Below the pieces are notes generated by a model, which saw only the letters and a list, made by a program, of their open reading frames with translations, was not told the origin of the DNA and did not search any database. From Ignavibacteria bacterium (lineage in GTDB: Bacteria; Bacteroidota; Ignavibacteria; Kapaibacteriales; UBA4661), in assembly GCA_013298775.1 (NCBI GenBank), contig JAAFIV010000019.1, positions 25,290-89,289 on the forward strand: a stretch of 64,000 bases of DNA, given 5' to 3'. Numbering within the stretch: the first letter of the stretch is position 1; each line of letters starts with the position of its first letter. Made by a program: the position numbers and the translations under genes. Positions 3,591 to 62,609 of the stretch are shown here, in pieces.

Positions 3591-3719
3591 TCTTCTCGTC
3601 GGGCGGCCGAGGAATGCAAGCACAGTAGCCGTCCGGCGGGTGCTTCAACCACACGGCTCTTCACCACACTCGCCGGACGGCGAAGAAGCCGCCTGACGAG
3701 ATAGTATCTCACCTGTCAC
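3591..3719. repeat. Family C palindromic element, degenerate copy (left terminal repeat lost)
   Basis: tcgtcgggcggc...gtagccgtccggcggg / ctcgccggacgg...gccgcctgacgagatagt core shared with 4727-4868; right end atctcacctgtcac matches the family TIR at 11/14. Confidence 0.75.
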
Positions 3720-3727
3720 TAATAGTA

Positions 3728-4525
3728 TTATCTGGGTTTGGAGATAATCGAAAAATCTTCATCGTGATAGACACGGGCAACACTTGGCGTGGTATCGCGT
3801 TGCAAAGCGGCTTCTACGTCGCGCCCAAAGCCAAGCGAAGCAAGATACAGCGCGTGTGGCGTGGTGCGAAGCGCGTCGTGCAAAGCGGCTTCGTCCGAAA
3901 GCGAAGCGTAGGTCTTGAAGGCAGTGAAGGAATATTCATCGGGCTGCAAGGCAGGTTCTTCGGCGAGAAGCGCGTCAATAAATGCCCCAGCGCACAGCGT
4001 ATCTTCTTCCGACGGTGCGCCTTCTGTTCCCGCACAAACAAGGCGAATTGAGCTAATGCGGGTGGTGTGAAGTTTTGGCGTGTGAAGATAGTGTAACAAA
4101 TACTCTATATTCGCGCGAAGATTGGTAAACCCAACAGCAAGCTGCAATGCCGCATGGCGTGTGCGTTCCAGAGCCTGTGTGCCGTTGGTGGTGGTCATTA
4201 CCAGTGTTTTGTGCTGCACAGCAGACGCGGTGTATTCAAGCGGCGAATTTCCTAGGTCGAAGCCCGTAGGCTTGATGCCATGCCGCTCGCCGCAGAGCAA
4301 CACATACCGCGCTTCTTCGGGCGAAATGCTGGCGCGAAGCTGCGTCGCAAGTTCCTGTGCGGCTTCCAGCTCGGCAACAGGAATGATGCGCCGTGCGCCA
4401 TTGTGCAAGGCAGTCGAAATGCTGGTTGTTGCGCGAAGCACGTCAATCACAATAGCGATGCTATGTCGCAAAGCGTGGTCGTTACGGGCTTCTTGGGCGG
4501 TTCGGACTGTTTCAATCGTGAGCAT
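3728..4525 (-). CDS. comB: 2-phosphosulfolactate phosphatase family protein (ComB-like)
   Basis: IVIDVLRATTSI, LCGERHG, FDLGNSP, MTTTNGT, EEDTLCAG. Confidence 0.88.
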   Translation of the reverse strand: MLTIETVRTAQEARNDHALRHSIAIVIDVLRATTSISTALHNGARRIIPVAELEAAQELATQLRASISPEEARYVLLCGERHGIKPTGFDLGNSPLEYTASAVQHKTLVMTTTNGTQALERTRHAALQLAVGFTNLRANIEYLLHYLHTPKLHTTRISSIRLVCAGTEGAPSEEDTLCAGAFIDALLAEEPALQPDEYSFTAFKTYASLSDEAALHDALRTTPHALYLASLGFGRDVEAALQRDTTPSVARVYHDEDFSIISKPR

Positions 4526-4726
4526 AATTGCAAAGAAATTTGAGAGAAGTGCATGTCCGCAAAATAGCATATTTGCTGGATTGTGCAGATATTTTCTTGT
4601 GATAATTTCCTGTATATGCTTTTGTAGAAAGCTCTCAGGAAGCCTTGAAAAACCTTATGTGGAAAGGAAAAATTGTGCTAGTTTCGTAAGACAAAGAGCG
4701 TCATTGCTTCTTTCTAAAAAATCTCA

Positions 4727-4868
4727 GTAACTGGTCAGGTCTTCCCGTCGGGCGGCTGTTATCACAAGCACAGTAGCCGTCCGGCGGGTTTACACGGAAC
4801 ACTGTGCCGAAGAAGAACCCGCCGGACGGTCAAGAAACCGCCCGACGAGATAGTACCTGACCAGTTAC
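4727..4868. mobile_element. 142-bp MITE, family C, IS66-like ends
   Basis: Perfect 14-bp TIR GTAACTGGTCAGGT / ACCTGACCAGTTAC; perfect 8-bp flanking direct repeat AAATCTCA at 4719-4726 and 4869-4876. Confidence 0.88.
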
Positions 4869-4899
4869 AAATCTCATTTGATGAAAAAGGAAACTTGAT

Positions 4900-6261
4900 T
4901 TGCACGACATACAAAATATCCCGAAAGAACGCGCCATTGCTGTTGGCGTGGGTAATCGCACCTACACACGCGAGGAATCGCTGGAGCATTTGGACGAACT
5001 GACGTTTTTGGCGGAAACGGCTGGTGCCGATGTCATTACGAAAATCTATCAAGACCGCGACCGTCCTGATGGCGCGACGGCTGTGGGAAAGGGAAAACTA
5101 GAAGAAATCAGACAGCTTGTCGAAGATGACGATATTGTGTTGGTGATTTTCGACGACGAGCTGACACCCGCACAAATGCGTAATCTTGAGCGCGAACTCA
5201 ACGTAAAAGTGATGGACAGAACAGGCTTGATTTTGGATATTTTCGCCTCACGCGCTCGCACCTACGAATCGAAATTGCAAGTGGAACTCGCCCAGCTTCA
5301 ATACTTGCTTCCGCGCCTCACACGGCTCTGGACGCACCTTTCTAAGCAGTTTGGCGGGATTGGCTCGAAAGGTCCGGGAGAATCGCAAATCGAAACCGAC
5401 CGCCGTCTTGTGCGCGACCGTATTGCGTTTTTGAAAGACAAACTCGCCACCGTTGCTACGCAAAAATTTGAACAGCGTAAGGGACGAGATTCTATGCAGC
5501 GTTTCGCGCTTGTTGGCTATACAAACGCGGGAAAATCTACCTTGATGAATGTGCTTTCCAATGCGAGCGTTTTGGCAGAAGATAAACTTTTTGCCACGCT
5601 CGACACGACTGTTCGCACGATTGAACTTGTGAGCGACGACCGCGCAACACAGCGCAGTGTCTTGCTTTCCGACACAGTTGGGTTTATTCGCAAACTCCCG
5701 ACGCAGCTTGTTGCTTCCTTTCGTTCGACGCTTTCGGAGACCGTTGAGGCGGATATTCTTTTGCACGTTGTGGATATTGCGCATCCGCAGTTCCGCGACC
5801 AAATCCGTGCTGTGCAGGAAACACTCGTGGCGATTGGCGCAGATTCTAAGCCAATGCTGATGGTATTCAACAAAATTGATGCCGCCAATGATTTAGACCT
5901 CGTTCATGCTGCCACGTCAGATTACACGCCGAGTATAGCCATTTCTGCCGAGCGCGGAATAAACATTGCTAATTTGCGGGAAACGATGCTGAATATGGAC
6001 GACACACAGCATGAAACCGTACATTTGCTTCTGCCATACAGCGCGATGAACACCGTCGCGCACTTGTACCGCATCGGCACGATTTTAAGCCGCACCGACG
6101 GCGATGACGGTGTGGAAATTACGGTGCGCTTGGAAATCTCGGAAGCCGCAAAGATGCAGGAATGGAGCGTTCAAAAGGCAAAACTTCCGAAGAAAACGAC
6201 GAAGGGAATTCCCAAGAAAACGCGTTCTACTGCTGCTAGTAGTCCAGTAAATGAGTTTTGA
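4900..6261 (+). CDS. hflX: GTPase HflX
   Basis: GYTNAGKST, DKLFATLDTT, DTVGFIRKLP, NKID, GPGESQIETDRR. Confidence 0.96.
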   Translation: MHDIQNIPKERAIAVGVGNRTYTREESLEHLDELTFLAETAGADVITKIYQDRDRPDGATAVGKGKLEEIRQLVEDDDIVLVIFDDELTPAQMRNLERELNVKVMDRTGLILDIFASRARTYESKLQVELAQLQYLLPRLTRLWTHLSKQFGGIGSKGPGESQIETDRRLVRDRIAFLKDKLATVATQKFEQRKGRDSMQRFALVGYTNAGKSTLMNVLSNASVLAEDKLFATLDTTVRTIELVSDDRATQRSVLLSDTVGFIRKLPTQLVASFRSTLSETVEADILLHVVDIAHPQFRDQIRAVQETLVAIGADSKPMLMVFNKIDAANDLDLVHAATSDYTPSIAISAERGINIANLRETMLNMDDTQHETVHLLLPYSAMNTVAHLYRIGTILSRTDGDDGVEITVRLEISEAAKMQEWSVQKAKLPKKTTKGIPKKTRSTAASSPVNEF

Positions 6262-6403
6262 CGTATTGCCTTTTGACAAGTTTGATAGGACGATTTGAAG
6301 CACTCTGCAGCCTGAGTTTGTCGGAGGCTTCACTGTCAGAATGAACGCAATAATGTAGTAGTCCCAGCATAGCTTACAATCTACATTCTCACTGCCCTTC
6401 TTG

Positions 6404-6473
6404 CTCAATGATGATTACTCAATGATGATTACTCAATGACGATTACTCAATGATGATTACTCAATAATAATTG
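6404..6473. repeat. 14-bp tandem repeat (CTCAATGATGATTA) x5
   Basis: Units at 6404, 6418, 6432, 6446 (near-identical) and 6460 (degenerate). Confidence 0.92.
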
Positions 6474-6524
6474 CCCGATGATGCTCAGAGTTTTGCTCTT
6501 TGCCGCATCGGGCATTTTTTTTTT
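6472..6524 (+). terminator. Rho-independent terminator
   Basis: TGCCCGATG/CATCGGGCA stem followed by T10. Confidence 0.8.
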
Positions 6525-6833
6525 CGATGGAATGTTCGTCAGCGACCAAGAATTCACAAAAACTAAACATTTTACCCTAAATATTCAAAACTGGCACATT
6601 GTTTGATTAACAAAAAGAGTGTGCATAACTTCTTCCATGCTATGAGTTTTTCTTCTCGCGTGAATGGACGTTGCGTTGTGCCTCGACGACCGAAACAATG
6701 CATCGAAACAATGTACAATAGAACTTGCATTTTTCGCGCTGAATCTCTATCTTCCATAGCTTTTGTCGTAACCGATGTCGTAACCGATAAAACTATACCA
6801 ACAACCTCGCTCGTCTATTTTCGGGAGAACAAT

Positions 6834-7091
6834 ATGGCTTTCAAAAATTCCAATGTGAATACAAAACTCAACTTTCTCATTGATGAAAGTGCAAGTTTTA
6901 TACGCCGTTATATGGAGGAATTACAAGGACATAAGGTGCGTCAAGCCTCGCTCGAGCAGCTTGCTAAGGGCGCAGACGGATTTGCCACGCCCGGCGAAGT
7001 GTATCGCCCTTTTTCTAAGTTTTCTCCCGTCGAACCGATTGCCAAAGCCGGCGGACACTCTTCTGAACTTCTCATTAAGGGACGACAATGA
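6834..7091 (+). CDS. Putative antitoxin (85 aa) of PIN pair
   Basis: GGGAGA RBS before ATG 6834; ATGA overlap with the PIN gene; C-terminal SSELLIKGR resembles VapB-type tails. Confidence 0.6.
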   Translation: MAFKNSNVNTKLNFLIDESASFIRRYMEELQGHKVRQASLEQLAKGADGFATPGEVYRPFSKFSPVEPIAKAGGHSSELLIKGRQ

Positions 7092-7540
7092 CACTGTATT
7101 ATCTTGACTCTTCTGCATGGCTTCAATACTACGTCCGCGAACAAGGGTCGGACAAGGTTGCTGCCTTGTTTCAGCCGTCGGTCGCGCTTGCTTGCTCGTC
7201 GTTTGGATTTGTTGAAGTGGTCGTTACTCTTAGCCGTTTAGCGCATTCGGGAGCAATTTCCCATGAAGATCTACTTCATAAAATTCACGACCTCGAAAAC
7301 GACTGGACGCAATTTCTCCAAGTTTCTGCTTCTGCTGCCGTTATCAAGCACGCCGAGCAGTCTGCGCTAAAGTATAATCTCTCGCCCGAACGCGCCTTAC
7401 ACATCGCATCATTGCTTGCGGTGCAGGAACGTACTGGCACCAGCGACAATACCGTGACGCTTGTTTCAACCGATACAGAATTGCTTGCAACTGCGCAAAA
7501 GTACGGCATTCCGGGCATGAATCCTTCCGAAGCCTCGTAA
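7088..7540 (+). CDS. PIN-domain (VapC-like) protein
   Basis: YYLDSSAW..YVREQGS, FVEV, ALHIAS, VSTDTELLATAQKYG. Confidence 0.85.
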   Translation: MTLYYLDSSAWLQYYVREQGSDKVAALFQPSVALACSSFGFVEVVVTLSRLAHSGAISHEDLLHKIHDLENDWTQFLQVSASAAVIKHAEQSALKYNLSPERALHIASLLAVQERTGTSDNTVTLVSTDTELLATAQKYGIPGMNPSEAS

Positions 7541-7580
7541 ATACGGTCCTAAACACGGTCGTAAATACGGTCGTAAATTA
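7535..7580. repeat. 12-bp tandem repeat (TCGTAAATACGG) x~4
   Basis: Units at 7535, 7547, 7559 and partial 7571, overlapping the PIN stop codon. Confidence 0.8.
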
Positions 7581-7670
7581 TAGTTGGAAATGCCGTAAAT
7601 ACATTGCAAGTCGTATCAATAAATAGCAACAATTGTCCCAATTCTTCTCAAGCTCATTCACACATGTATT

Positions 7671-8645
7671 TTGCCCAACGCTCCTCACGATAATCGTTCT
7701 GCTTCTTCGCCGCTTTCCCAGCATTCACGCGCTTTGGTGCTGCTTGCTCTTACGGCGGTACTCTGGAGTTCGGGTGGCTTTCTGATAAAACTTATTTCGT
7801 GGAATGCCTTCTGTATTGCTGGAATGCGCGGTGCCATTGCTGCCGCATGTATCGGGCTTCTAATGCGCAAGCATCTTGTTTTTAACCCTGTTCGCCTCTC
7901 CTTCTACGAACGCTGCGCTGCACTTGTTTATACCTCTACTGTAACACTTTTTGTCTCGGCAACAAAGCTCACAACCGCCGCCAATGCTATTTTGCTGCAA
8001 TATACCGCCCCTGTGTATGTTGCCATTTTTGGTGCATGGTTTTTGAGTGAACGCACCGATAAACGCGACTGGATAACGCTTGCCGTCGTCGTTTTAGGCA
8101 TGGTACTATTTTTCGTGGAGGGATTGTCGGCAGATAATATGCTGGGAAATTGCTTTGCTCTTTTGAGTGGATGTAGCTTTGCGTGGCTAACGCTTTTTAT
8201 GCGCAAAGAGGCGCAGATACGCCGTGCAAGGGAAATTGCGGAGAATACCGACTCAGTTCATTCCTCCAATTCCGGCGTGAATGCTGTGTTTTGGGGTAAT
8301 ATCCTAACAGCAAGTATTGGTGCGCCTTTCGTGGTGCAATCTTTTCTGAGCGGCACGGCTCCTGTCTCTGGCGATGCGGCGTGGCAAAGCTGGCTTGGAT
8401 TGGTGCTTTTGGGCGTATTTCAACTTGGTATTTCCTACATTCTGTACGCTCGTGCATTGCCGCACGTGAGCGCACTTGAAGCAATTCTCATTCCCGTTAT
8501 TGAACCGCTCCTGAATCCTGTGTGGGTTGCGCTCGCGACAGGCGAAAAACCGAGCTTTTATGCGGCATTGGGCGGAATTGTTGTTGTTACTGCTATTACT
8601 GTGCGGAGCTTGTCGAGCCTTCGCGCATCCCGCTCCAATCCTTGA
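7671..8645 (+). CDS. EamA/DMT family transporter
   Basis: About 10 hydrophobic segments; TTAANAILLQYTAPVYV, IEPLLNPVWVAL..GEKP. Confidence 0.88.
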   Translation: MPNAPHDNRSASSPLSQHSRALVLLALTAVLWSSGGFLIKLISWNAFCIAGMRGAIAAACIGLLMRKHLVFNPVRLSFYERCAALVYTSTVTLFVSATKLTTAANAILLQYTAPVYVAIFGAWFLSERTDKRDWITLAVVVLGMVLFFVEGLSADNMLGNCFALLSGCSFAWLTLFMRKEAQIRRAREIAENTDSVHSSNSGVNAVFWGNILTASIGAPFVVQSFLSGTAPVSGDAAWQSWLGLVLLGVFQLGISYILYARALPHVSALEAILIPVIEPLLNPVWVALATGEKPSFYAALGGIVVVTAITVRSLSSLRASRSNP

Positions 8646-8744
8646 TTTGGCAAAATACGTTTTAAAGTGTATTTTTGCAGTGCTTGAATTCAAGATGTTC
8701 TGTCGCCGCATTCCTTCTCATCTTTTCCCCTCTCGTATCGCCCC

Positions 8745-9872: not shown

Positions 9873-10002
9873 AATTGCGAATGTGAATGAGAATCTCACT
9901 TCACGCATACCACCGCGTTGTCCTCACCCCTCGCTGTGCGAGACCCTCTCCCAAAGGGCGAGGGTTCATAGAAACTAGCTCTAAAGCCCTCTCCTTCTAG
10001 GA

Positions 10003-10222
10003 GCTAATAAGGGTAAGCATTCCAGAAGGCACATAAAAACTGATGTTCTGTGTGAGGGTCTGACTTCTTCGTCAGGCTCTCACTTTCTTCACGAAGGAAG
10101 TGAGAGCCTCAATAAGAATTGAGACCCTCACGCCCGGTGTAAAATCTTAGTCTTGTATTTTCGATGTATTTTCATAAACACGAGATTTTATTAGGCTTAC
10201 AATAACACCTACCCTTGTCAGC
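10003..10222. mobile_element. 220-bp MITE-like insertion with IS1595-like ends, carrying a family B doublet
   Basis: Imperfect TIR GCTAATAAGGGTAAG / CCTACCCTTGTCAGC; imperfect flanking duplication CTTCTAGGA / CCTCTGGGA (7/9). Confidence 0.6.
10052..10131. repeat. Family B REP-like doublet (B1)
   Basis: GTGAGGGTCTGAC-ttcttc-GTCAGGCTCTCAC plus inverted GTGAGAGCCTCAA-taagaa-TTGAGACCCTCAC. Confidence 0.88.
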
Positions 10223-10282
10223 CCTCTGGGAGAGGGCTGGGTGAGGGTGGTGTACATAAGGTGAATTACAACATAAACAATC

Positions 10283-11095: not shown

Positions 11096-11441
11096 GGCGG
11101 CATCTCCGAAAAAAACTGTGTAAAAAGAAGTTGAATGCGAATCGTGTGAAGAATACCTGCGTTGTTTAGGCGTTGAATGCTATTGCTTGAGTATTCTTGG
11201 TACAAAAATGCAGGAAATGGCGTGAAGAAACATCTGCCCAATGGTCAGGACTTTCTCTACCAAAACGTCATACAGGAATTGGTGTGCGGATGATATACGC
11301 GGATTGCGTAGGAAGGATGAATTGTAAAAAAATCTCTTGGATGCAAGCGGTGTTTGCGTGTAACTTACAGAGATTTTCTGTCAGGTTTTTCCGTACTTTT
11401 TGGCTTGATTTCTCTTTGTAAACGAAACATTTTCCTCAGTA

Positions 11442-11517
11442 GTGACACAGACATTCTTGTCTGTGAGCGTAGGCGTGGGACTCAGGACAGAAACACAGAC
11501 AAGAATATCTGTGCCAC
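11442..11517. repeat. Family A REP doublet (A1)
   Basis: GTGACACAGACATTCTTGTCTGTG, 28-bp spacer, then CACAGACAAGAATATCTGTGCCAC. Confidence 0.9.
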
Positions 11518-11617
11518 TAAATCCTGATTCTACCTGCTTCTCAGATGTTTTGTTCTGTGCAAAACGCATTTCCTTTATCGTTCAATTCCTTCATCTCCCC
11601 TTTACCTTTTTTATCGC

Positions 11618-14041: not shown

Positions 14042-14067
14042 CGCAGCACGTCTATTCAAGCACAATT

Positions 14068-14212
14068 GTAACTGGTCAGGTCTTCTGTCGGGCGGCTGAG
14101 GAGTGCTTGAACGCTGCCCATCCGGCGGGTAGGTCGCTTGCACAGCACTCGCCGGACGGGCTACTGCGCTTGTAATAACAGCCGCCCGACGAGATAGTAT
14201 CTGACCGGTTAC
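14068..14212. mobile_element. 145-bp MITE, family C, IS66-like ends
   Basis: TIR GTAACTGGTCAGGT / ATCTGACCGGTTAC; perfect 8-bp flanking direct repeat GCACAATT at 14060-14067 and 14213-14220. Confidence 0.88.
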
Positions 14213-14249
14213 GCACAATTATCCTTGAATTCACGACTACCAAATTTCT

Positions 14250-15239: not shown

Positions 15240-15245
15240 CATTCT

Positions 15246-16124: not shown

Positions 16125-16136
16125 AGACTTTGTAGC

Positions 16137-16180: not shown

Positions 16181-16205
16181 GTATCATCCCTCAAAATCAA
16201 GATTC

Positions 16206-20398: not shown

Positions 20399-20487
20399 GC
20401 GAGGGTCTCACTTCCTAGTGAGGCTCTCGCTTCTGTACAAAGTGAGAGCCTCACTGACGGCTTTGCGTCAGGAAGTGAGACCCTCAC
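20399..20487. repeat. Family B REP-like doublet (B2)
   Basis: GCGAGGGTCTCAC-ttccta-GTGAGGCTCTCGC ... GTGAGAGCCTCAC...GTGAGACCCTCAC. Confidence 0.88.
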
Positions 20488-24768: not shown

Positions 24769-24808
24769 GCTTCTTCTCTTCTCGTCAGCCAACAAAGATA
24801 TTGCCATA

Positions 24809-24884
24809 GTGGCACAGACATTCTTGTCTGTGTTTTCCGCCTGAATCCCGCGCCAATACTCACAGACAAGAATGTCTGTGCCAC
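24809..24884. repeat. Family A REP doublet (A2)
   Basis: Perfect 24-bp inverted REP units with 28-bp spacer. Confidence 0.92.
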
Positions 24885-24922
24885 TATTAAAGATTGAAAA
24901 CAATTCATTTGAATAGTATTGA

Positions 24923-32112: not shown

Positions 32113-32164
32113 GGTGTGGAACGTGGTGGAGAGGAGAGAGTTGCGAAATGAATTGCGGCTCTCA

Positions 32165-32304
32165 GTACACGACAAAATTCTTTCAATAGTGGCACAGACA
32201 TTCCTGTCTGTGAGTGTTAGTGCGAGGTTCAGGGGGCAACACAGACAAGAAGTCTCAAGCCACTGAAGCTGATTTATCTGTTGTTCAGAAATTTTGCTAT
32301 GTAC
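32165..32304. mobile_element. 140-bp element: family A REP doublet (32189-32263) inside an outer inverted repeat
   Basis: Outer GTACACGACAAAATT / AATTTTGCTATGTAC. Confidence 0.75.
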
Positions 32305-32493
32305 GAAGATGACGGATAATGGGAACAAACCTCGCACATTTGCGTAAATGCTCAAGGTATCGTATTTTAAATGCTGACAAATCCTCGTAATATACGCGGA
32401 TAACGAAGATTACACAAAAAAATCTCTCCATTTTCGCTCTTCCCGTTTTACGCTTTCATAAAGCGTAGAACGGGTTTCACGGTAAAAAATCAT

Positions 32494-33255: not shown

Positions 33256-33364
33256 GTGAGGGTCTCGCTTCTTGGGCGAGGCTCTCACTTTCATGCACTG
33301 TACTCCAGAAGCCGCTTCCACTCTCGCTCAACGTGAGACCCTCGCCAAGAAGCGAGGGACTCAC
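33256..33364. repeat. Family B REP-like doublet (B3)
   Basis: GTGAGGGTCTCGC-ttcttgg-GCGAGGCTCTCAC ... GTGAGACCCTCGC-caagaa-GCGAGGGACTCAC. Confidence 0.85.
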
Positions 33365-34702: not shown

Positions 34703-34778
34703 GTGGCACAGACATTCCTGTCTGTGTTTGTCGCTTGAAACTCGCGCCAACACTCACAGACAAGAATGTCTGTGCCAC
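34703..34778. repeat. Family A REP doublet (A4)
   Basis: 24-28-24 architecture; degenerate outer IR ending ttttttgcatggtac. Confidence 0.9.
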
Positions 34779-34840
34779 TACTGAAGATTTTTTTGCATGG
34801 TACTGAAAAAAATACTTAAAAACTTCACCTTTCCTTTCTC

Positions 34841-36885: not shown

Positions 36886-36974
36886 GTGAGGCTCTCAATT
36901 CTTATTGAGGGTCTCACTTCATGCTCATATCACACTACCAAAGTGAGACCCTGACGAAGAAGTCAGAGCCTCAC
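36886..36974. repeat. Family B REP-like doublet (B4), reverse orientation of B1
   Basis: GTGAGGCTCTCAA-ttctta-TTGAGGGTCTCAC ... GTGAGACCCTGAC-gaagaa-GTCAGAGCCTCAC. Confidence 0.9.
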
Positions 36975-39137: not shown

Positions 39138-39224
39138 AAGTAGTGTGTTTACACGGTTTGCAAGCGAGTGAAAGGATTAAGATAATCTCGAAAAGGCGTA
39201 AGATTAAGGCTCAAAAGTTAAGTA

Positions 39225-39300
39225 GTGGCACAGACATTCTTGTCTGTGAGTGTTATCGCGGGTTTCAAGCGACGAACACAGACAAGAATGTCCGTGCCAC
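39225..39300. repeat. Family A REP doublet (A5)
   Basis: 24-28-24 architecture. Confidence 0.92.
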
Positions 39301-39335
39301 TATTGGCTTTGTTCACTTGATTTTTTACCATTCCA

Positions 39336-44800: not shown

Positions 44801-44856
44801 AAAAATGGAGACTACCTTCCAAAGCGCATCCACGCTAGAAAGTAGTCTCCATTTTT
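44801..44856. terminator. Bidirectional terminator-like hairpin, family E copy 1
   Basis: AAAAATGGAGACTAC / GTAGTCTCCATTTTT between convergent hxlR-like gene and gyrA. Confidence 0.78.
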
Positions 44857-47466: not shown

Positions 47467-47744
47467 AATCACACGCTGTTGATTGAGAGGGGGAAGAATG
47501 TTAATTCAAGGTTTTACGCCGTTTGTTCACAATTTTTGCATCATTTTGAACACGACAAAAGAATGAACAATATACGGAATTTCTGTGATATTTTCTAGGA
47601 TATTGCACTAGGATTTCTCGGAGAATTGCCTCTCTAACGTTGGACAAAAACAAATGGTAAAAGTCAGGTTCGTACCGTTGCTGGACATCGCTGAAGAGGA
47701 TGCTGAAAAGATGCTGAAGAGATTTTGTTGTGTTCTATACCTCT

Positions 47745-47901
47745 GTACACAACAAAACTTTTTTCATAGTGGCGTGAGACTTCTTGTCTGTGAGTGTTGG
47801 TGAGGGGTTCAAGCAACGAACACAGATAAGCTGAGGGAATCCCTCAGGTTTGTGCCACTGAAGCCTGATTTAATGAGCTTTTCAGAGGTTTTGTCGTGTA
47901 C
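47745..47901. mobile_element. 157-bp element: family A doublet (47769-47858) inside an outer inverted repeat
   Basis: Outer GTACACAACAAAAC / GTTTTGTCGTGTAC; extra hairpin CTGAGGGAATCCCTCAG in the right REP loop. Confidence 0.78.
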
Positions 47902-47923
47902 AAAGGTGTATGGGTTCAAGGGA

Positions 47924-48286: not shown

Positions 48287-48308
48287 GAAATAACGCGATA
48301 CAAACAAT

Positions 48309-48364
48309 AATGGAGACTACTTTCCAGCGCAGGTGCGCTTTTGAAGGTAGTCTCCATTTTTTTT
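48309..48364. terminator. Terminator-like hairpin, family E copy 2 (inverted relative to copy 1)
   Basis: AATGGAGACTAC / GTAGTCTCCATT plus T-run, downstream of the acyl-CoA dehydrogenase. Confidence 0.72.
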
Positions 48365-50362: not shown

Positions 50363-50394
50363 CAAAACTACAAAAAAAAGTTGATGTATCAACT
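50363..50394 (-). promoter_or_regulatory. Candidate promoter -7 box and palindromic operator AGTTGAT-GT-ATCAACT
   Basis: TAGTTTTG on minus at 50363-50370; perfect 7-bp-arm palindrome at 50379-50394. Confidence 0.45.
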
Positions 50395-50471
50395 ACATTT
50401 GTAAAAAAAATGAAAAAAAGTAGAACTTCCGCAAAACAACAGTTTTGAAGAGCAGACAAGAGTGTTTGCTC

Positions 50472-50616
50472 CAATGTCATCAATGTAAGCCCTCACCCCG
50501 CTCTGCGAGCGACCCTCTCCCAAAGGTAGAGGGTTTAGAGATGGCTCTATGTCTTGCCCTTCTCCTCCTGGGAGAAGGGTTGGGATGAGGGAAAAATCCT
50601 TACGTTGATGACATTG
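50472..50616. mobile_element. 145-bp MITE with IS4-like ends carrying a family D palindrome, inserted in a GTAG REP
   Basis: TIR CAATGTCATCAATGTAAG / CTTACGTTGATGACATTG (17/18); flanking GTGTTTGCTC / GTTTCTGCTC (8/10). Confidence 0.85.
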
Positions 50617-50718
50617 GTTTCTGCTCTACTAAAGCCCCATGAAGACTGGGTCTTATGGTAACGCAGAGACTCTTGTCTGCGCCACGTGAGAAAATCTCTT
50701 CAGATTTCATCCTTCTTT

Positions 50719-51342: not shown

Positions 51343-51380
51343 TTATGAAAGGATGAAGGTGGAAATGAAGGTTTGCAGAA

Positions 51381-51467
51381 TGGCACAGACAAGAGTGTCT
51401 GTGCTACCGAAGCCAGTATCTATCAGTAGCGCAGACACTCTTGTCTGCGCATAAATGTCTGTGCCAC
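51381..51467. repeat. Family A variant (GTAG REP units, outward-facing, nested)
   Basis: CACAGACAAGAGTGTCTGTGCTAC ... GTAGCGCAGACACTCTTGTCTGCG ... TGTCTGTGCCAC. Confidence 0.8.
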
Positions 51468-51483
51468 AAGACGCAAAGCAACA

Positions 51484-55503: not shown

Positions 55504-55528
55504 AGCGGAGGGGAGTTTGTTGGCTGTT

Positions 55529-55622
55529 GTGAGGGTTCACTATGTGAGTGTGAGGGTTCACTATGTGAGAGGCTGGCTTTTTAACAGGGAGTGAGAGCCT
55601 CACTGGGGAGTGAGACCCTCAC
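55529..55622. repeat. Family B element (B5), left unit degenerated into a 21-bp tandem duplication
   Basis: GTGAGGGTTCACTATGTGAG x2, then GTGAGAGCCTCAC-tgggga-GTGAGACCCTCAC. Confidence 0.78.
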
Positions 55623-55636
55623 AGAGCTTCAATCAA

Positions 55637-57892
55637 CTACAAATTTTTCTTCCAAAAATCAAGCATCAGATTATACAAGTGAATACGCGCTGGAGCGTCG
55701 GAAATACCGTGCTTGCGCATGGGGTACATCATCAAATCGAACTGCTTATTTGCTTTCACAAGCTCGTTAATAAACATCCAGACGTTTTGCGGATGGACGT
55801 TGTCATCGTAGGTGCCGTGAACAAGCAGCAATCGCCCTGAGAGGTCTTTTGCGCGGACGTTGGCGTTGGTTTTATCGTAGCCAGCGATGTTTTCTTGCGG
55901 CGTTTTCATGAAGGATTCGGTGTACTTCGTGTCGTAGTACCGCCAGTCGGAGGGCGCGGCGACTGCTATTCCCGCCTTAAATTCCTTCGAGCGCGTCATT
56001 CCTTGCAAGGTGAATGCCCCGCCGAACGACCAGCCCCACATCCCAACACGGCTTGAATCCACATACGATTGCCCTTTCAGCCAACGCACTCCTGCGAGCA
56101 AATCATTTACTTCGCTGTCGCCCGCGAGGTCTTTCACGCAGGTATTTTCGTAGGTTTTGGAAATGCCTGCACACGAGCGGTTATCGAGCTTCACGATGAT
56201 ATACCCTTCGTCGGAAAGCATTTGATAAAAGTATTTATCGCGGTCTTGCTGCCAGGCGTTTTGCACAACGGGCGCAGACGGACCTCCATAAACGTAGATG
56301 ATAACGGGATAGCGTTTTGTGGAATCAAAATTGCGCGGCGTGAGAATCTGCGCGGGCATAGCAAATCCGCCGCTTACCGGAATGGTGAAAATACGTGGCG
56401 TTTGCAGAGGAAGTTTCGCGCTGAGGTCAGAGCGGCTGGCAGCCAGCACTGCTACTTGCTTGCCGTCGTTTTTGTGCAAACGCAGCGTGGGCGGTGTGGT
56501 CAATGTTGAAAAATTATCGGTGTAGAATGCGCCGTCATTGCTCATGCTAACAGTATGCGTGCCACTTTCCTCGCTTAAACGCTGCATTTTCGAGCCATCC
56601 AACTGAATTTTGTACAAATGGCGTTCTACCGAAGACTTCTCCAGAGCGCGGAAATACAGCGTTCCACGCTTTTCGTCCACCGCAGCAATGACGCTGGCGC
56701 GTGCGCCACCTGCTGCCCAATCGCCCTTTGTTACTTGGTTTGCGAGCTTTCCATCCAGCGTATAGCGATAGATGTGGTTGTAGCCCGTGCGCTCGGAAGC
56801 CCAGAGAAAATGCTTATTGTCGGCGAGGAAGTGCAAATCATCATGCACATTTACCCAGCCGTCGTTGGTTTCTTTCAGGATTTGCGTGGTTTTTCCTGTC
56901 GCAGCATCGGCGAAATGTAGCGTGAGTTCTGTTTGTGCGCGGTTCATTGTTTGTACAGATAAACGCTTGTTGTCGGGCAGCCATTTTAAGCGCACGATAT
57001 ATTCTAGTTTCGGCTCAACACCAGCATATCCGCCACTTGTGGGGAAATCTACCCAGCGCACCGCACTTGGATTCTCCACATTCAACACGCCCACGCGCAC
57101 TTTCGGATTTGCCGTTCCCGCTTTTGGGTAGCGTTGTTCAATATTTTCTGGTACAACGGGCTTAAAATCAGGGAAAATCACCGTACTGACGGGTGACTCA
57201 TCGCTTTGAAAAAAGGCAATCATTTTGGAATCTTCCGACCACGTATAGCCTTCATCGGCGCGGTCATAGACTTCTTCCCAATACACCCACGAATGCGTAC
57301 CGTTGTAAAATAATTTGCTGCCGTCGGTGGTGAGGCGTGTTTCCTTGCTGCTTGCGAGGTCGTACACGTACAGGTCGTTTGCGCGTACAAAGGCGATTTT
57401 TTTGCCGTCGGGCGAGAAGCGCGTACAATCTTCTTTTGTACCGCGAATCGAACGCCATTCGTTTGTTGCAATGGTCAAAATATGCACATCTTCACCCCAT
57501 TGCACAAAGCCCGCACTACCACTAGCGTTAAAGCTCGGAAATGGCACAACTTCTGTACCAACGAGCGTTTTCCAGTTTGCTTTTATTTTCGCCATATCGC
57601 CATGCTGCGTGCGCTTGCTGCTTGCGGGGTCGAGCTTCTCAAAAGCACGTGATGATGCGGGCTGGCGGGAATCCAGCATAACAGCAGAGCCATCCGAACA
57701 CCATTGCAGGGCGGGAAGAACACTTATATCACGAAACTGTCCGCGATATATGCCCTCTATCGTGATTTTATCCGATGAAATCTGGGTTTGAGCATTACTT
57801 TCTACCGAACTTTGCACCGAAAAAAGTACGGACGAACTAAGAAACACACACACAGCGCAAACGCGCAACATCAGCAATGAAGAACGATTCAT
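55637..57892 (-). CDS. S9B dipeptidyl peptidase IV family protein
   Basis: GWSFGG nucleophile, HGTYDDNVH, RKHGI; DPPIV_N motifs WVYWEE and YPKAG. Confidence 0.93.
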   Translation of the reverse strand: MNRSSLLMLRVCAVCVFLSSSVLFSVQSSVESNAQTQISSDKITIEGIYRGQFRDISVLPALQWCSDGSAVMLDSRQPASSRAFEKLDPASSKRTQHGDMAKIKANWKTLVGTEVVPFPSFNASGSAGFVQWGEDVHILTIATNEWRSIRGTKEDCTRFSPDGKKIAFVRANDLYVYDLASSKETRLTTDGSKLFYNGTHSWVYWEEVYDRADEGYTWSEDSKMIAFFQSDESPVSTVIFPDFKPVVPENIEQRYPKAGTANPKVRVGVLNVENPSAVRWVDFPTSGGYAGVEPKLEYIVRLKWLPDNKRLSVQTMNRAQTELTLHFADAATGKTTQILKETNDGWVNVHDDLHFLADNKHFLWASERTGYNHIYRYTLDGKLANQVTKGDWAAGGARASVIAAVDEKRGTLYFRALEKSSVERHLYKIQLDGSKMQRLSEESGTHTVSMSNDGAFYTDNFSTLTTPPTLRLHKNDGKQVAVLAASRSDLSAKLPLQTPRIFTIPVSGGFAMPAQILTPRNFDSTKRYPVIIYVYGGPSAPVVQNAWQQDRDKYFYQMLSDEGYIIVKLDNRSCAGISKTYENTCVKDLAGDSEVNDLLAGVRWLKGQSYVDSSRVGMWGWSFGGAFTLQGMTRSKEFKAGIAVAAPSDWRYYDTKYTESFMKTPQENIAGYDKTNANVRAKDLSGRLLLVHGTYDDNVHPQNVWMFINELVKANKQFDLMMYPMRKHGISDAPARIHLYNLMLDFWKKNL

Positions 57893-58228
57893 AGCAATTG
57901 AGAAAATAAATGAAATGGAAGGTTGAATTCAAGTGAGGTGAATTGACGCAGCGTTTAATTTACCGTTTTTTTTCACAAGCGCATAGGTCTAGTTATGAAA
58001 AAATGCGTGAACAGCTCATTCAGGCGTACTGTATCTACATTGCGCATATCTTGAGGAAACGTATTGTTGCCCTTGGGTACCGTTGGAGCTGGTTGCATGC
58101 GCCTTGCCGTCCAATCGCGAAAATTGTTGCGTGTATTCAATCCGCTTCCAGATTTCTTGCGTATTATCACGCAGAACCACGGTCATTCATGTATCGTTAT
58201 TCATTTACTCACTTTTACTTTTGGTATT

Positions 58229-59017
58229 ATGATGTCGCATTCTTTTTCTTGTGTTTGTGCAATCGCGCTGCTTTCGGTAGCGAGCGTACTCGCACGACCA
58301 CTCGCAAGCATAGACAACACGGGCTATTCAGCCCTTTTGAACGAACACGTCAAGGACGGACGGGTCAATTACAAAGCCATCAAGCAAGATAAACGCCTCA
58401 CGGATTATCTTGAGCAACTCAGCAAAACCGACCCCAAAACGCTCTCTGGCAAGGAAGAGCTTGCCTTTTGGCTGAATGTCTATAATGCCTTCACGCTGAA
58501 AGTCATGTGCGACCATTATCCGCTCAAGAGCATCACGGACTTGAACTCACCAGGCGGCGCGGGAGGTTTGATTTTTGCCACAATTGCAAAAAGTACAATT
58601 TGGGATAAACAGCTTGTGGAAATTAACGGCAAAAAATATTCGCTCAATGGCGTTGAAAATGACATCATTCGTCCCAAAGGCGACCCGCGTGTGCATTTTG
58701 CGATGGTCTGTGCGGCGAAAAGCTGTCCACCGCTTCGTAACGAAGCCTTTCAAGCGGATAAATTGAACGAACAGCTCGAAGACCAAGGGCGTGATTTCAT
58801 TGCGCAAAGCAAGAAAAATAACTTTGATTTCAATAAGAAATCCTGTAATATCTCAAACATCTTCAATTGGTTCAAAGGCGATTTTGAAAAAACAGGCAAA
58901 ACACCCTTGCAGTATATCGCCCGCTTTTTGCCCAAAGAGCAAGGAGATATGCTGCTTGCAAATGCCAACAGCTTTTCGGTAAACTACACCGAATACGATT
59001 GGAGCATCAACGAATAG
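58229..59017 (+). CDS. DUF547 domain secreted protein
   Basis: LAFWLNVYNAFT, SLNGVEN, DPRVHFAMVCAAKSCPPL, IFNWFKGDF, YDWSINE. Confidence 0.9.
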   Translation: MMSHSFSCVCAIALLSVASVLARPLASIDNTGYSALLNEHVKDGRVNYKAIKQDKRLTDYLEQLSKTDPKTLSGKEELAFWLNVYNAFTLKVMCDHYPLKSITDLNSPGGAGGLIFATIAKSTIWDKQLVEINGKKYSLNGVENDIIRPKGDPRVHFAMVCAAKSCPPLRNEAFQADKLNEQLEDQGRDFIAQSKKNNFDFNKKSCNISNIFNWFKGDFEKTGKTPLQYIARFLPKEQGDMLLANANSFSVNYTEYDWSINE

Positions 59018-59027
59018 AACAACTTTG

Positions 59028-59170
59028 GTGCAGGATAAAATCTCTGAATGATAGGTAGAATCAGGCTTCAGTGGCACGGACATTCTTGTCTGTGTTTCTT
59101 GACTGAACCCTGCGTCAAACCTCACAGACAAGAATGTCTGTGCCACTATGGAAAGAATTTTGTCGTGTAC
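59028..59170. mobile_element. 143-bp element: family A doublet (59071-59146) inside an outer inverted repeat
   Basis: Outer GTGCAGGATAAAAT / ATTTTGTCGTGTAC; reverse orientation relative to 32165-32304. Confidence 0.75.
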
Positions 59171-59210
59171 TTCAAGTAGAATAAGTAGAATGACTTTCAG
59201 GGAATTTTTT

Positions 59211-59945
59211 ATGGCGACAGAAATTATTGTTTCGATTATTATTCCAACCTTGAACGAAGCCGCACGCGTCCAGACGCTTGCGGCTTCGCTGTCTTTGCTC
59301 CCACACGCAGAATGTATTTTCGTTGATGGCGGCAGCACCGATGGCACGCAAGCCGCTCTGCAAGACACTTCCAAGCATTTTTCCAACTGCCGATGGCTAC
59401 AATCCGAGCGTGGGCGTGGTAAGCAAATGAACGCCGGAGCCGCATCCGCACAAGGTTCGTGGCTACTTTTTCTCCATGCCGATACAGATGTACCACGAGC
59501 ATCCTACGAAACCTTCCTGCGTGAGGCTCTCATCATCCCATCATCCCACGAAGCGCGTACCAAGATTCATCTGACCTCTGGCGCATTCACCTTTCGCATA
59601 GCGCATGAACGCTCGCGGTATCGGTACTTGGAGTGGTATGTGCAGCAACGATGCCGCTTTCTGAAGCTCCCATTTGGCGACCAAGCAATTTTTGTCCGCA
59701 CAGAACTCTTCCAGCAACACGGCGGCTTCCGCGAAGATTTTCCACTCATGGAAGATATGGAATTTATTCAGCGAGTGAATAGCGATGCGGGTTTCAGGGT
59801 GATTGACGCGCCAGTCTTCACCTCAGCGCGACGCTACGAGCAGGAAGGCTACTGGAAACGCGCAACGGGCAACATTGTACTGCAACTCTTGTACCGCGCA
59901 GGAGTCCATCCGAAGCGGCTTGCAGCGTGGTATTACAAAAATTGA
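59211..59945 (+). CDS. GT2 glycosyltransferase, TIGR04283-like
   Basis: SIIIPTLNEA, VDGGSTD, RGRGKQMNAGA, FLHADT, PFGDQAIF, PLMEDMEF, TSARRY. Confidence 0.88.
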   Translation: MATEIIVSIIIPTLNEAARVQTLAASLSLLPHAECIFVDGGSTDGTQAALQDTSKHFSNCRWLQSERGRGKQMNAGAASAQGSWLLFLHADTDVPRASYETFLREALIIPSSHEARTKIHLTSGAFTFRIAHERSRYRYLEWYVQQRCRFLKLPFGDQAIFVRTELFQQHGGFREDFPLMEDMEFIQRVNSDAGFRVIDAPVFTSARRYEQEGYWKRATGNIVLQLLYRAGVHPKRLAAWYYKN

Positions 59946-60129
59946 AACTGATGAGAAACGAATCCTCGTGCTAAAAACACAGAATTTCTGCCACCCAAGA
60001 TTGCATACTGCCAAGATTCTGTGTAAATTTAAGGGTGCTGTTTCCGAAGCAAATTTTCGGTATCACGCGCATTGATGCGGCATGTCACTCCGCATTGTTC
60101 CTTCTACACATCTCGACTTTGAGAATATT

Positions 60130-61416
60130 ATGCTTGATGTTTGTATTATTGGTGCTGGTTTAGCGGGTTTGGCGTGTGCTTCCGAGCTTGCACAGCGCGG
60201 GATTGAGTACGTCGTGCTGGAAAGTTCAGGGCGCGTCGGCGGACGCGTTGCCACCGACCATTTGGACGGGTTTTTGCTTGATAGAGGCTTTCAAATTCTT
60301 CTTTCCGAATACCCAGAAGCCAAGCGGGTTCTGGACTATGGAGCATTAAACCTTCGCCCCTTCGATGCGGGTGCAAACATTTGGCTTGGCGACCGCTTCA
60401 CAACGATTGCTAATCCCCTCAAGCATCCTCAACACGCGCTTCAAACCTTATTTTCACCGATTGGCTCTGTTGCCGATAAATTTCGCATTCTTACCTTGCA
60501 GCAAAGATTGACGAACATGAGCTTTGATGCGGCATTGCAAGGACGCGAGCGCACAACAGCAGAATACTTGCGCGAGTATGGCTTTAGTGAACGCATGATA
60601 GAACGCTTCTTCCAGCCTTTTTTCGGTGGTGTTTTTTTTGATGCAAAACTGCACACCTCCAGCCGAATGTTTGAATTTCTCTTCCGAATGTTCGCGCTTG
60701 GTTCTGCCACACTTCCAGCAGCAGGAATGGAGCAGATTCCTCTACAAATGGCTTCCAAACTGGATTCCGCAAAGATTCGCCTCAATTCTCCTGTGAATTA
60801 TTTGGAAGAATCAAGTAATGATGCGGCGAATGGAATGAACAAAGGAATGAACAAAGGAATGAACGTCGTTTTGAATTCTGGCGAAATCGTACAAGCCCGC
60901 CACGTGGTGATTGCGAGCGATTGGAATACAGCCGCAAAACTCAGTAAAAATGAGGTCTCCGTGCCAAAGAGCTGTGGCACAACGAATGTCTATTTTGCGG
61001 CAAAAGAACCGCCGGTGCAATCTCGCATGTTGGTTCTGAATGGCACAGGGCGCGGCTTGGTGAACAACATGTGCGTCCCGAACTTGGTCGCGCCATTGTA
61101 CGCGCCAGAGGGCGAGTTTCTGATTTCCACAAGTATTATTGGCATTCCCAAGACCGATGATGAAACATTGCTTCATGCCGTGCGTCAAGAATGCCAGAAT
61201 GTTTTTGGGAAACAGGTGCAGGACTGGCGGCATTTACGCACCTACCGCCTCGAACACGCGCTACCAAGCCAAGAATCACCCGCACTCACGCCCACAGAGC
61301 GTCCCGTGCAGCTCTCTCCGCGTCTTTTTGTTGTTGGAGACCACCGCGATACGGCTTCTATTCAGGGTGCAATGGTCTCTGGTAAGCGAGCAGCAGAGCA
61401 GATTGCAGCGTTGTAG
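60130..61416 (+). CDS. FAD-dependent oxidoreductase (amine oxidase/protoporphyrinogen oxidase-like)
   Basis: IIGAGLAGL, GGRVATD..DGFLLDRGFQ, VGDHRDTASIQGAMVSG. Confidence 0.88.
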   Translation: MLDVCIIGAGLAGLACASELAQRGIEYVVLESSGRVGGRVATDHLDGFLLDRGFQILLSEYPEAKRVLDYGALNLRPFDAGANIWLGDRFTTIANPLKHPQHALQTLFSPIGSVADKFRILTLQQRLTNMSFDAALQGRERTTAEYLREYGFSERMIERFFQPFFGGVFFDAKLHTSSRMFEFLFRMFALGSATLPAAGMEQIPLQMASKLDSAKIRLNSPVNYLEESSNDAANGMNKGMNKGMNVVLNSGEIVQARHVVIASDWNTAAKLSKNEVSVPKSCGTTNVYFAAKEPPVQSRMLVLNGTGRGLVNNMCVPNLVAPLYAPEGEFLISTSIIGIPKTDDETLLHAVRQECQNVFGKQVQDWRHLRTYRLEHALPSQESPALTPTERPVQLSPRLFVVGDHRDTASIQGAMVSGKRAAEQIAAL

Positions 61417-61457
61417 TATGCTTCGCTACTGACCAAATTCAGTACACCAAACCCAAA

Positions 61458-61533
61458 GTGGCACAGACATTCTTGTCTGTGAGTATTGGTGCTCGTTCTA
61501 GGCGACAAACACAGACTGGAATGTCTGTGCCAC
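61458..61533. repeat. Family A REP doublet (A8)
   Basis: 24-28-24 architecture. Confidence 0.9.
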
Positions 61534-61589
61534 TATATGCTTATTCGTATATTTTTCAAGCACTCTATAAAATTCAACAAAGGGAAAGT

Positions 61590-62504
61590 ATGAAATTACC
61601 CGAAAGCGGACTTATTTGGATGAACGGCGAGTACGTTCAGTGGAAAGATGCCACCGTCCACGTTTTAGCGCACGTGATTCACTACGGCACAAGTTGGTTC
61701 GAGGGCATTCGCTCCTACGAAACTAAGCGTGGTGCGGCAATATTCCGTCTGCGCGACCATATCAAGCGTTTGGAGCGTTCTTTGCGCATTTACCATACCG
61801 AAATGCCGTATAGCATTGAAGAGCTGGAAGCGGCATGCGTCGGCGTGTTGAAGAAAAACAATCTTTTAGCGGCGTATTTGCGTCCAATTATTTTTCGCGG
61901 CTATGGTGAAATGGGTATTTCGCCGATAAACTGTCCCACCGAATGCGCGATTGCCGCATGGGAACTCGGCGCGTACTTGGGCGCAGCAGCCGAGCGCGGC
62001 GCGAATATGTGCATTTCTACGTGGAATCGTTTGCCGCCAAACACTATGCCCGCACTCGCTAAAGCTGGCGGCAACTACATGAATGCCCAGCTTATGAAAA
62101 TGGAAGCAATCCGCAACGGCTACGATGAAGCATTGACGCTGGATATAGACGGAAACGTCTCGGAAGCAAGCGGCGCGAATGTGTTCATGGTACAAGACGG
62201 TATCCTGTACACGCCGCCAATAAACGACTCCCTTTTGATGGGAATCACACGCGACACGGTGCTTGCATTGGCGAAAGACGCAGGAATTCCCGTAAAAGAA
62301 ACGTTGCTCCCACGCGGCATGGTCTATACTGCCGATGAAATCTTCCTTGCTGGCACGGCAGTAGAAATCAACTGGGTACGCTCGGTGGATAAATTGGAGG
62401 TTGGTAAAGGGAAAATTGGCGAAATGACCAAAATGCTCAAAGACCGCATGGATGCAGTCGTGAAAGATGGTACTGATACGCACGATTGGTTGCATTTTTT
62501 CTAA
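61590..62504 (+). CDS. ilvE: Branched-chain amino acid aminotransferase
   Basis: HYGTSWFEGIR, AKAGGNY (PLP Lys), EASGANVF, LMGITR, ADEIFLAGTA. Confidence 0.95.
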   Translation: MKLPESGLIWMNGEYVQWKDATVHVLAHVIHYGTSWFEGIRSYETKRGAAIFRLRDHIKRLERSLRIYHTEMPYSIEELEAACVGVLKKNNLLAAYLRPIIFRGYGEMGISPINCPTECAIAAWELGAYLGAAAERGANMCISTWNRLPPNTMPALAKAGGNYMNAQLMKMEAIRNGYDEALTLDIDGNVSEASGANVFMVQDGILYTPPINDSLLMGITRDTVLALAKDAGIPVKETLLPRGMVYTADEIFLAGTAVEINWVRSVDKLEVGKGKIGEMTKMLKDRMDAVVKDGTDTHDWLHFF

Positions 62505-62519
62505 ATATTTTGTCTTTCC

Positions 62520-62609
62520 GTGAGGGTCTCACTTCCGAGTGAGGCTCTCACTTTCATACGAAACTACCACACGACAAGCGAGACCCTCACGAGGAAGTGA
62601 GAGCCTCGC
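62520..62609. repeat. Family B REP-like doublet (B6)
   Basis: GTGAGGGTCTCAC-ttccga-GTGAGGCTCTCAC ... GCGAGACCCTCAC-gaggaa-GTGAGAGCCTCGC. Confidence 0.9.

Follow-up and report, generated by a model that had tools for sequence, protein, structure and literature searches.

A 64,000-nucleotide stretch of a draft Ignavibacteria genome (GCA_013298775.1, here G000; positions 25290-89289 of contig C11, hereafter the window) carries short palindromic repeats that occur both free and between outer terminal inverted repeats of the kind found in insertion sequences (ISs). The repeats belong to four core families, A, B, C, and D. We refer to the flanking terminal inverted repeats as a shell and to a shell with its core as a composite. 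The composites are families of transposable elements of the miniature inverted-repeat type (MITEs) that insert as units by DDE-type transposition. Further, we consider it probable, at roughly 65%, that doublets of repetitive extragenic palindromes (REPs) and composite MITEs represent two kinds of small mobile DNA that merged in this genome, with the composites being moved by DDE transposases.

Core loci were counted using profile searches across all of G000, a 5.19 Mb draft of 95 contigs that is 99.2% complete by marker genes. The searches identified 352 loci of A (294 full-length), 157 of B (86 full-length), 221 of D (186 full-length), and 171 of C (64 full-length). The window contains 19 core matches and 6 intact shell pairs. 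Repeat scans and reading of the sites located all four families at the positions reported in an earlier note on this DNA.

The combinations of shell and cargo were surveyed from both sides. On the cargo side, the 45-nt flanks of all full-length cores were clustered; on the shell side, every pair of ends within 600 bp was taken using an 18-nt end seed, and 12 end types yielded pairs. The surveys revealed one cargo in several shells and one shell, that with the C ends, with several cargos. More specifically, A and D each occur inside at least five shells that have different terminal inverted repeats, one cargo per shell, a narrow length, and constant junctions. Among the 294 A cores, 75 had CTYTGTACACGACAAAA ends on both sides and 48 more had them on one side; GGTACTAAATGATTT, TAGACATTATA, and GGAAGGCTCAAAAAT ends flanked 24, 9, and 9 cores, respectively, a fifth type flanked 5, and 87 were naked, having unique flanks on both sides. 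The 183 D cores comprised 46 with CTCACCTTACGCA ends, 16 with CAGGGCTGTTAAGTTCT ends, 17 with TTGAAGTTTAGATAAAAT ends in two subtypes, 6 and 4 with two CAATGTCAT types, and 57 that were naked. Of the B doublets, 78 of 86 were naked.

The main A shell, CTYTGTACACGACAAAA, which is of the IS4 type (see below), contained the core in 48/48 pairs. Its modal length was 151 bp, which reads as 153 bp by the seed (38/48), and its target-site duplication (TSD) was 9 bp, with at most one mismatch in 35/48 pairs. The three shells of this type proposed previously for the window are present, but their GTACACGACAAAA ends had been called 4 bp too short on each side. In the four smaller A shells, the core was likewise found in every pair: GGTACTAAATGATTT (15/15; mode 183 bp; 8-bp TSD perfect in 7/15 and with ≤1 mismatch in 11/15), TAGACATTATA (12/12; 171 bp; 3-bp TSD in 10/12), GGAAGGCTCAAAAAT (5/5; 152 bp; 3-bp TSD in 4/5), and TAGACTTTATCTACG (3/3; 164 bp; 3-bp TSD in 2/3). 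The 3-bp TSD of the GGAAGGCTCAAAAAT shell (the GGAAGGCTC type) was also read by eye, in 9/9 copies. For D, the core was present in 31/31 pairs of the main shell, CTCACCTTACGCA (mode 142 bp; 7-bp TSD with ≤1 mismatch in 19/31), 20/24 pairs of CAGGGCTGTTAAGTTCT (145 or 155 bp; 11-bp TSD perfect in 9/24 and with ≤1 mismatch in 12/24), 34/34 pairs of TTGAAGTTTAGATAAAAT (170 or 182 bp), and 5/5 and 6/6 pairs of the two CAATGTCAT shells (147 bp; TSD of ~10 bp). No clear TSD length was apparent among the TTGAAGTTTAGATAAAAT pairs (the TTGAAGTTTAG end type). Finally, the B shell spans 206-247 bp, has a TSD of ~11 bp, and contained a B core in 7/7 pairs genome-wide.

Overall, the families comprise 3-88 paired copies each, and the elements are non-coding and 142-247 bp long. 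Their family-specific TSDs fall into five size classes. The main A shell has a 9-bp TSD, the second A shell and the C ends share one of 8 bp, and the main D shell has one of 7 bp; a 3-bp TSD marks three A shells, and a TSD of ~11 bp is found in both the B shell and one D shell. The shell TSDs are not due to chance as they are perfect in 50/88 C, 22/48 main A, and 16/31 main D pairs. Among the pairs within 600 bp, no empty A or D shell was found except for 4 of the 24 CAGGGCTGTTAAGTTCT D pairs (the CAGGGCTG-end type), which lacked a core match of half length or more. A convergence of the shells on 140-145 bp, noted earlier, did not hold genome-wide: the modal lengths were 142-183 bp and, in the B shell, 206-247 bp.

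Comparison with eight congener genomes (G001-G008) identified orthologous sites that lack the composites. Thus, the A composite at ~59023-59176 of the window (- strand; A core 59070-59148; TSD TAGAAYAA) is missing from the corresponding short intergenic spacer of G006, G008, and G002, as judged by alignment, and from that of G004, as judged by match coordinates only. Similarly, the A composite at 32161-32308 (+ strand; A core 32187-32264) is missing at the orthologous site in G006. At three other A sites, the comparison with G006 was as follows. At the naked A doublet at 24807, ~125 nt are missing and the intergenic DNA is too diverged to place the boundaries; at the A core at 39223, the spacer does not align and contains no visible A core; at the naked A doublet at 34703, the G006 contigs break. 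The many copies each with its own TSD, the constant junctions, the lack of empty A and D shells apart from the CAGGGCTG-end pairs, and the empty orthologous sites establish the composite as the moving unit, as the earlier note had suggested.

The elements also nest, as had been described. In the window, the left part of a D core (9922-10002, + strand; D-core match, model 2-86) is cut in its second hairpin loop by a B-shell MITE of 220 bp (10003-10222, - strand; ends GCTAAYAAGGGTA; B doublet at 10054-10131). The latter has six other copies in the genome and is the element for which a B core in a 220-bp shell had been reported. Removing the B-shell MITE together with one copy of the TSD rebuilt an intact D core in 5/5 cases in G000. 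Therefore, the specific target of the B-shell MITE is the D hairpin's loop, CCCTCTGGGAG, and its insertion duplicates 11 bp. Several TSDs of the main A composite are pieces of REP hairpins, which accounts for the nesting.

Two further repeats serve as targets of composites. An A variant with GCGCAGAC arms in place of GGCACAGAC, which the A-core profile detects poorly, is often hit by the IS4-type composite, with TSDs such as TCTGCGC. In the window, it occurs as an intact doublet (51383-51450, + strand; inverted repeat) and as a doublet (GCAGACAAGAGTGTYTGC; 50452-50680, + strand), found as an inverted repeat, compared with the intact copy, and split by a D composite of 147 bp (50471-50617, + strand; ends CCAATGTCATCAAYGTAAG; CCAATG..CATTGG shell; D core 50490-50590). 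This D composite is at the place previously described; of the 10-bp TSD attributed to it, only 8 of 10 positions match in the window copy, whereas another copy of the family has a perfect 10-bp TSD. The second target is a hairpin family, CCCCCTTTATCAAGGGGG (e.g., G000:C6:75755-75865 and C36:24873-25045), into which the CAGGGCTG-ended D composite inserts and which was also found within one C-ended shell.

A parent IS was identified for the main A shell. At G000:C14:80600-81780, a 1179-bp IS encoding a 351-aa transposase is flanked on both sides by the 9-bp TSD GGTACAGAC. Its ends, CTATGTACACGACAAAA and TTTTGTCGTGTACAAAG, are the same as those of the main A shell over the terminal 17-18 nt. The transposase scored 203.2 bits on NF033591 (IS4 family, cut-off 152) and 52.4 bits on PF01609. 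A 9-bp TSD is typical of the IS10 and IS50 groups within the IS4 family. This IS is itself inserted inside the A core of another composite, and a second copy of the type occurs in G004, a genome with 0 A REPs. In addition, G006 contains a ~985-bp IS5-family element (62.9 bits, below the cut-off of 140) whose ends are like those of a minor A shell. Together with the five TSD classes, these two elements bear out the proposal that the shells derive from several IS families.

For the other shells, no autonomous IS with the same ends was found among the unpaired ends in G000 that lack a nearby core, these ends being few and without a transposase. Two candidate parents were rejected: a 1031-bp end pair on C7 was a chance match of 3-mismatch seeds, and an end pair on L086 did not enclose its transposase match. 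The search for transposases with matching ends, which the earlier note had called for, thus succeeded for the IS4 family. Its suggestion of IS66 for the GTAAC ends failed: PF03050 had 0 matches in G000 (99.2% complete by marker genes), although an unassembled copy is possible.

Fixed TSDs are the mark of staggered cuts by DDE enzymes; HUH enzymes are not known to leave a TSD. The fixed TSDs of 9, 8, 7, 3, and 11 bp thereby already contradict a reading in which tyrosine transposases (the TIRYT type), and not DDE enzymes, act on the shells, these being long terminal repeats. Tyrosine transposase genes flanked by long inverted repeats that are unrelated to REPs have been described (PMC3733652). 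Nevertheless, the main A shell has the ends of a DDE element of the IS4 family, and the only two Y1 genes in G000 are both flanked by B-type REPs. We regard the TIRYT reading as extremely improbable.

The cargo was next compared with known REPs. In the A doublet, 25-nt arms in inverted orientation are separated by a 28-nt spacer. Each arm consists of a GTGG tag, 94-98% conserved, followed by the hairpin CACAGACA-TTCT-TGTCTGTG. A GT[AG]G-type tag at the foot of the hairpin is a hallmark of REPs (PMC3733652). The B doublet has inverted arms of ~32 nt, and such a tag is not clearly visible in B or D. The search for REP-associated tyrosine transposases (RAYTs) suggested earlier yielded the two Y1 genes of G000. 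One is an intact 192-aa RAYT gene on C8 with B doublets on both sides (24.8 bits on PF01797; 66 bits on NF047646, below its cut-off of 80); the other, on C1, carries a stop codon and is flanked by a B-like variant. The closest named relative of the G000 RAYT carries an Ignavibacteria label (61% identity), followed by Balneolaceae and Bacteroidota. The same arrangement of B doublets around a RAYT occurs in G004. Thus, B is an ordinary REPIN (REP doublet) family with its own RAYT and is mostly naked.

No A-REP-bracketed RAYT gene was found in G000. Four congeners, G005, G006, G007, and G008, have a Y1_Tnp domain with an A REP on either side, the two REPs being in inverted orientation and ~490-515 bp apart. 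Based on its GTGG-tagged hairpin arm and on this RAYT-like gene bracketed by A REPs in four congeners, A is a true REP family. No RAYT for D or C was detected at any locus examined across the genomes searched. The earlier view of the cargo as REP/RAYT-type stands for A and B; C is no REPIN but a common MITE interior (see below).

In G005, the bracketed domain lies within recG (L054:397-3081). The gene is an 894-aa open frame with the Pfam order RecG wedge, DEAD, Y1_Tnp, Helicase_C, RecG_dom3_C, the RAYT-like Y1_Tnp being in frame between DEAD and Helicase_C and bracketed by inverted A REPs. The A-REP-bracketed Y1 domains of G006 (L057), G007 (L052), and G008 (L051) are in long, stop-free open frames of 518-1060 aa. 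In recG of G000 (C78:61396-63660), an in-frame D core occupies the spot held by the Y1 domain in G005. A full-text literature search, which did not extend to subscription journals and supplements, found no description of a RAYT within recG.

Across the genus, the numbers of A REP arms and IS4-type ends were 559 and 133 in G000, 564 and 62 in G006, 235 and 6 in G008, 179 and 14 in G001, 81 and 8 in G007, 20 and 18 in G005, 1 and 9 in G002, 0 and 9 in G004, and 0 and 3 in G003. As these counts include each without the other, A REPs and IS4-type ends are separable in the genus. The A composite is most expanded in G000, the genome without an A RAYT.

In one rival reading, RAYT-moved REPINs repeatedly land in the centres of empty MITEs, each copy being a separate hit and the composite itself immobile. 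HUH enzymes act on single-stranded DNA such as that in the loop of a MITE hairpin, and the elements in G000 favour hairpins as targets. Moreover, REP dimers were described within longer palindromes in three other species, with unlinked targets not found in at least one of these (PMC3733652). However, no empty A shell was found, and for D only 4/24 CAGGGCTG-end pairs lack a core match of half length or more. Further, the junctions and lengths are constant within each family, G000 has the most composites yet no A-type RAYT, and what congeners lack at orthologous sites is the entire composite, which has its own TSD. Repeated landing is already contradicted as an explanation of the copy number, and we judge it very unlikely as an account of the composites.

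The diversity of the cores is consistent with doublet populations that are old and bursts of composites that are younger. It is highest among naked cores, whose mean pairwise identity is 0.816 for A and 0.766 for D; shell-borne sets are tighter, reaching 0.91-0.96, apart from the main A composite (see below). The consensus cores of the different shell classes hardly differ over 80 nt. Most of the naked A copies listed (60 of 87) end sharply at TAGTGGCAC..GTGCCACTA beside unrelated sequence. By eye, no TSD was noticed at naked A copies, although these were not counted; shell-borne copies insert with a TSD.

The sequence of events that we favour for G000 is as follows. A and B are REPINs of the type that RAYTs serve, and D is a similar double-hairpin module with no known enzyme. 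About a dozen MITE families each have one fixed palindromic interior: A in five, D in five, and B in one, with one further set of ends carrying C or others. A DDE transposase supplied in trans would cut and paste, or copy, each composite as a whole, which would explain why the TSD length is specific to the family. The origin of a composite, with a doublet coming to lie between two IS ends, would have been a rare event that took place about once in each family. Most likely, a REPIN inserted into the single-stranded loop of a small hairpin derived from an IS, or into that of an IS, and a burst followed. A second possible route, suggested by the sequence common to three A shells, is exchange between MITE families. 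Since G000 either lost the A RAYT or did not assemble it, A has no visible means of multiplying there other than riding in MITEs. We infer that REP doublets became the cores through capture between IS ends, on about one occasion per family, as we infer the direction and mechanism of capture and any benefit of the hairpin to transposition. In folding calculations, composites formed one long hairpin in which the ends pair and the core prolongs the stem, with z scores of -11.0 (C copy 4727-4868), -6.1 (C copy 14068-14212), -9.3 (D composite), and -2.9 (the sole A composite folded).

Alternatively, there was no capture: A and D would be interiors long present in one or two ancient MITE lineages, the ends of which were later exchanged through recombination between MITE families, and naked copies would be decayed MITEs. 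Three A shells have ~30 nt in common outside the 80-bp core, about one third of the naked A copies retain short remnants of the shell interior, and D has no RAYT in the genomes searched. In addition, the C-type ends carry at least four interiors, indicating that ends and interiors re-assort. On the other hand, a RAYT-like gene lies between A REPs in four congeners, the 235 A REPs of G008 are accompanied by only 6 IS4-type ends, and most of the listed naked A copies have sharp boundaries beside unrelated sequence. We consider an origin without capture to be unlikely.

Several observations weigh against capture and merger as we propose them. No empty shell was found that would directly attest capture by insertion into a MITE already in place. 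The segment common to three A shells points to exchange between MITE families and not to independent captures, and some naked A copies are decayed MITEs and not RAYT products. B, the only family with a RAYT in G000, is rarely in a shell (7 shell pairs), although frequent RAYT-driven insertion into MITEs would be expected to place it in many of them; D lacks a RAYT throughout. For A, the pattern of older doublets and younger bursts depends on the smaller shells: the main A composite is diverse, its cores having a mean pairwise identity of 0.829, close to that of naked A. Finally, only one parent IS was assembled in G000, and the transposases of the other shells are deduced solely from TSD size. 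In a draft of 95 contigs, repeats are under-assembled and multi-copy ISs are poorly assembled.

A broader form of the proposal is that REP doublets escape their RAYT by recruiting the ends of active DDE ISs, that this is a general route by which bacterial MITEs are born, and that the hairpin is selected for joining the ends. We find this extension rather doubtful. If it were true, minimal ends around a REPIN would transpose better than the ends alone, and a lineage without the RAYT, as in G000 for family A, would keep expanding its REPINs by means of borrowed transposases.

The C ends, GTAACTGGTCAGGT, differ in carrying several cargos. Their 88 pairs contain C in 62, a second interior in 19, a third in 3, a fourth in 2, and two singletons, one of which is a B-like doublet. 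The 8-bp TSD has at most one mismatch in 69/88. Thus, a single MITE family with an 8-bp TSD has at least four repeated interiors, of which C is the commonest; C is not a REPIN in a shell. The two C-shell MITEs of the window, of 142 bp (4727-4868, + strand) and 145 bp (14068-14212, - strand), have perfect 8-bp TSDs, AAATCTCA and GCACAATT, respectively, in agreement with the earlier description of GTAAC-ended shells. A third C-type interior, at 3597-3701 (+ strand; nhmmer C-core match, model 1-106), has degenerate ends with no intact GTAAC terminal repeat pair.

C ends at contig termini were evaluated as a parent IS of the C shell and rejected as they belong to another, unassembled IS at a fixed point within C elements. 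Thirteen identical left ends and ~13 right ends of this IS run off G000 contigs (e.g., C1:265266-265378, C12:239747-239872, and C4:1-189). The IS lies outside the window, is always inserted directly after ...CCGCCCGA in C-type elements, and has its body in no contig. It was absent from all eight congeners searched, based on which it looks like a recent site-specific invader.

The composites resemble the IS-derived MITEs of other bacteria, such as Nezha, Chunjie, RUP, and Correia/NEMIS, in having terminal inverted repeats, family-specific TSDs, a length of 140-250 bp, no coding capacity, many copies, sites that are empty in relatives, and, in the case of the main A shell, a parent IS sharing its ends. 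Unlike these MITEs, their interior is not a remnant of the parent IS but a REP doublet of which the genome also has free copies and which recurs in five MITE families whose ends differ. Tobes and Pareja reportedly described, in 2006, ISs that target REP sequences, that is, ISs inside REPs; IS1397 is of this type. Similar cases are the IS4 copy within an A REP, the insertion of the B shell into the loop of D, and the unassembled IS at a fixed point in C, whereas the composites have the reverse nesting, with the REP inside the IS ends.

A and B resemble REPIN-RAYT systems (Bertels and Rainey 2011, PMC3116915) in consisting of inverted REP doublets, ~80-90 bp long and in hundreds of copies, and in having a RAYT bracketed by the same REPs, those of B in G000 and those of A in congeners. 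Unlike in those systems, more than half of the A doublets are inside DDE-type MITEs with TSDs. REPINs and MITEs have been handled as separate classes (bioRxiv 10.1101/2021.07.10.451892). A further precedent is a brief remark by Di Nocera et al. (2013, PMC3733652) that REP dimers in three species are regularly central in a longer palindrome; REPs within repair genes were also noted there. That remark concerns one outer palindrome per species and offers neither TSDs nor a link to ISs nor evidence of movement. By comparison, G000 has ~10 outer types, TSDs, a parent IS, and empty sites. Full-text literature searches, excluding subscription journals and supplements, yielded no account of REPINs within MITE shells, nor of a single REP doublet shared by several MITE families with TSDs.

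G000 and its genus provide a setting in which one REP doublet recurs as the constant interior of several MITE families that differ in their ends, although REPINs and MITEs are thought to differ in enzymes, rates, and fates. It is a concrete case for the origin of MITE interiors unrelated to the parent IS, for the persistence and multiplication of hairpin repeats without a transposase of their own, and for testing whether a central palindrome aids DDE transposition. For annotation, repeat finders designed for REPs only or MITEs only will misclassify the composites.

The remaining elements of the window include further A composites and, as had been noted, naked doublets. A decayed IS4-type A composite (11415-11564, + strand; core match at 11440-11518) has the ends CTTTGTAAACGAAACA and TTTTGTTCTGTGCAAAA by eye. 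Another IS4-type A composite, of 167 bp (47740-47906, + strand; end pair and A-core match), contains a small extra palindrome within its core. The A core at 39223-39302 is in a shortened GGAAGGCTC-ended, IS5-like shell (39204-39334, + strand), identified from a single end match at 39204-39221 and, by eye, from a right flank that corresponds to the right arm of the family. A-core matches also identified two A doublets without a recognizable shell (24807-24886 and 34703-34780, both - strand) and one with a remnant of an IS4-type left end (61441-61535, + strand). B-core matches correspond to naked B doublets at 20401-20487 (- strand), 33256-33361 (+ strand, with a long spacer), 36886-36972 (+ strand), and 62520-62607 (+ strand), and to a partial doublet at 55550-55622 (- strand; model 1-70 of 87). 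A further small palindrome, AAAAATGGAGACTAC..GTAGTCTCCATTTTT, occurs in two copies, at 44801-44856 and 48303-48364; these are possibly terminators or members of another repeat family. Finally, positions 6387-6481 contain a tandem array of ~6-7 copies of the 14-nt unit TTACTCAATGATGA.

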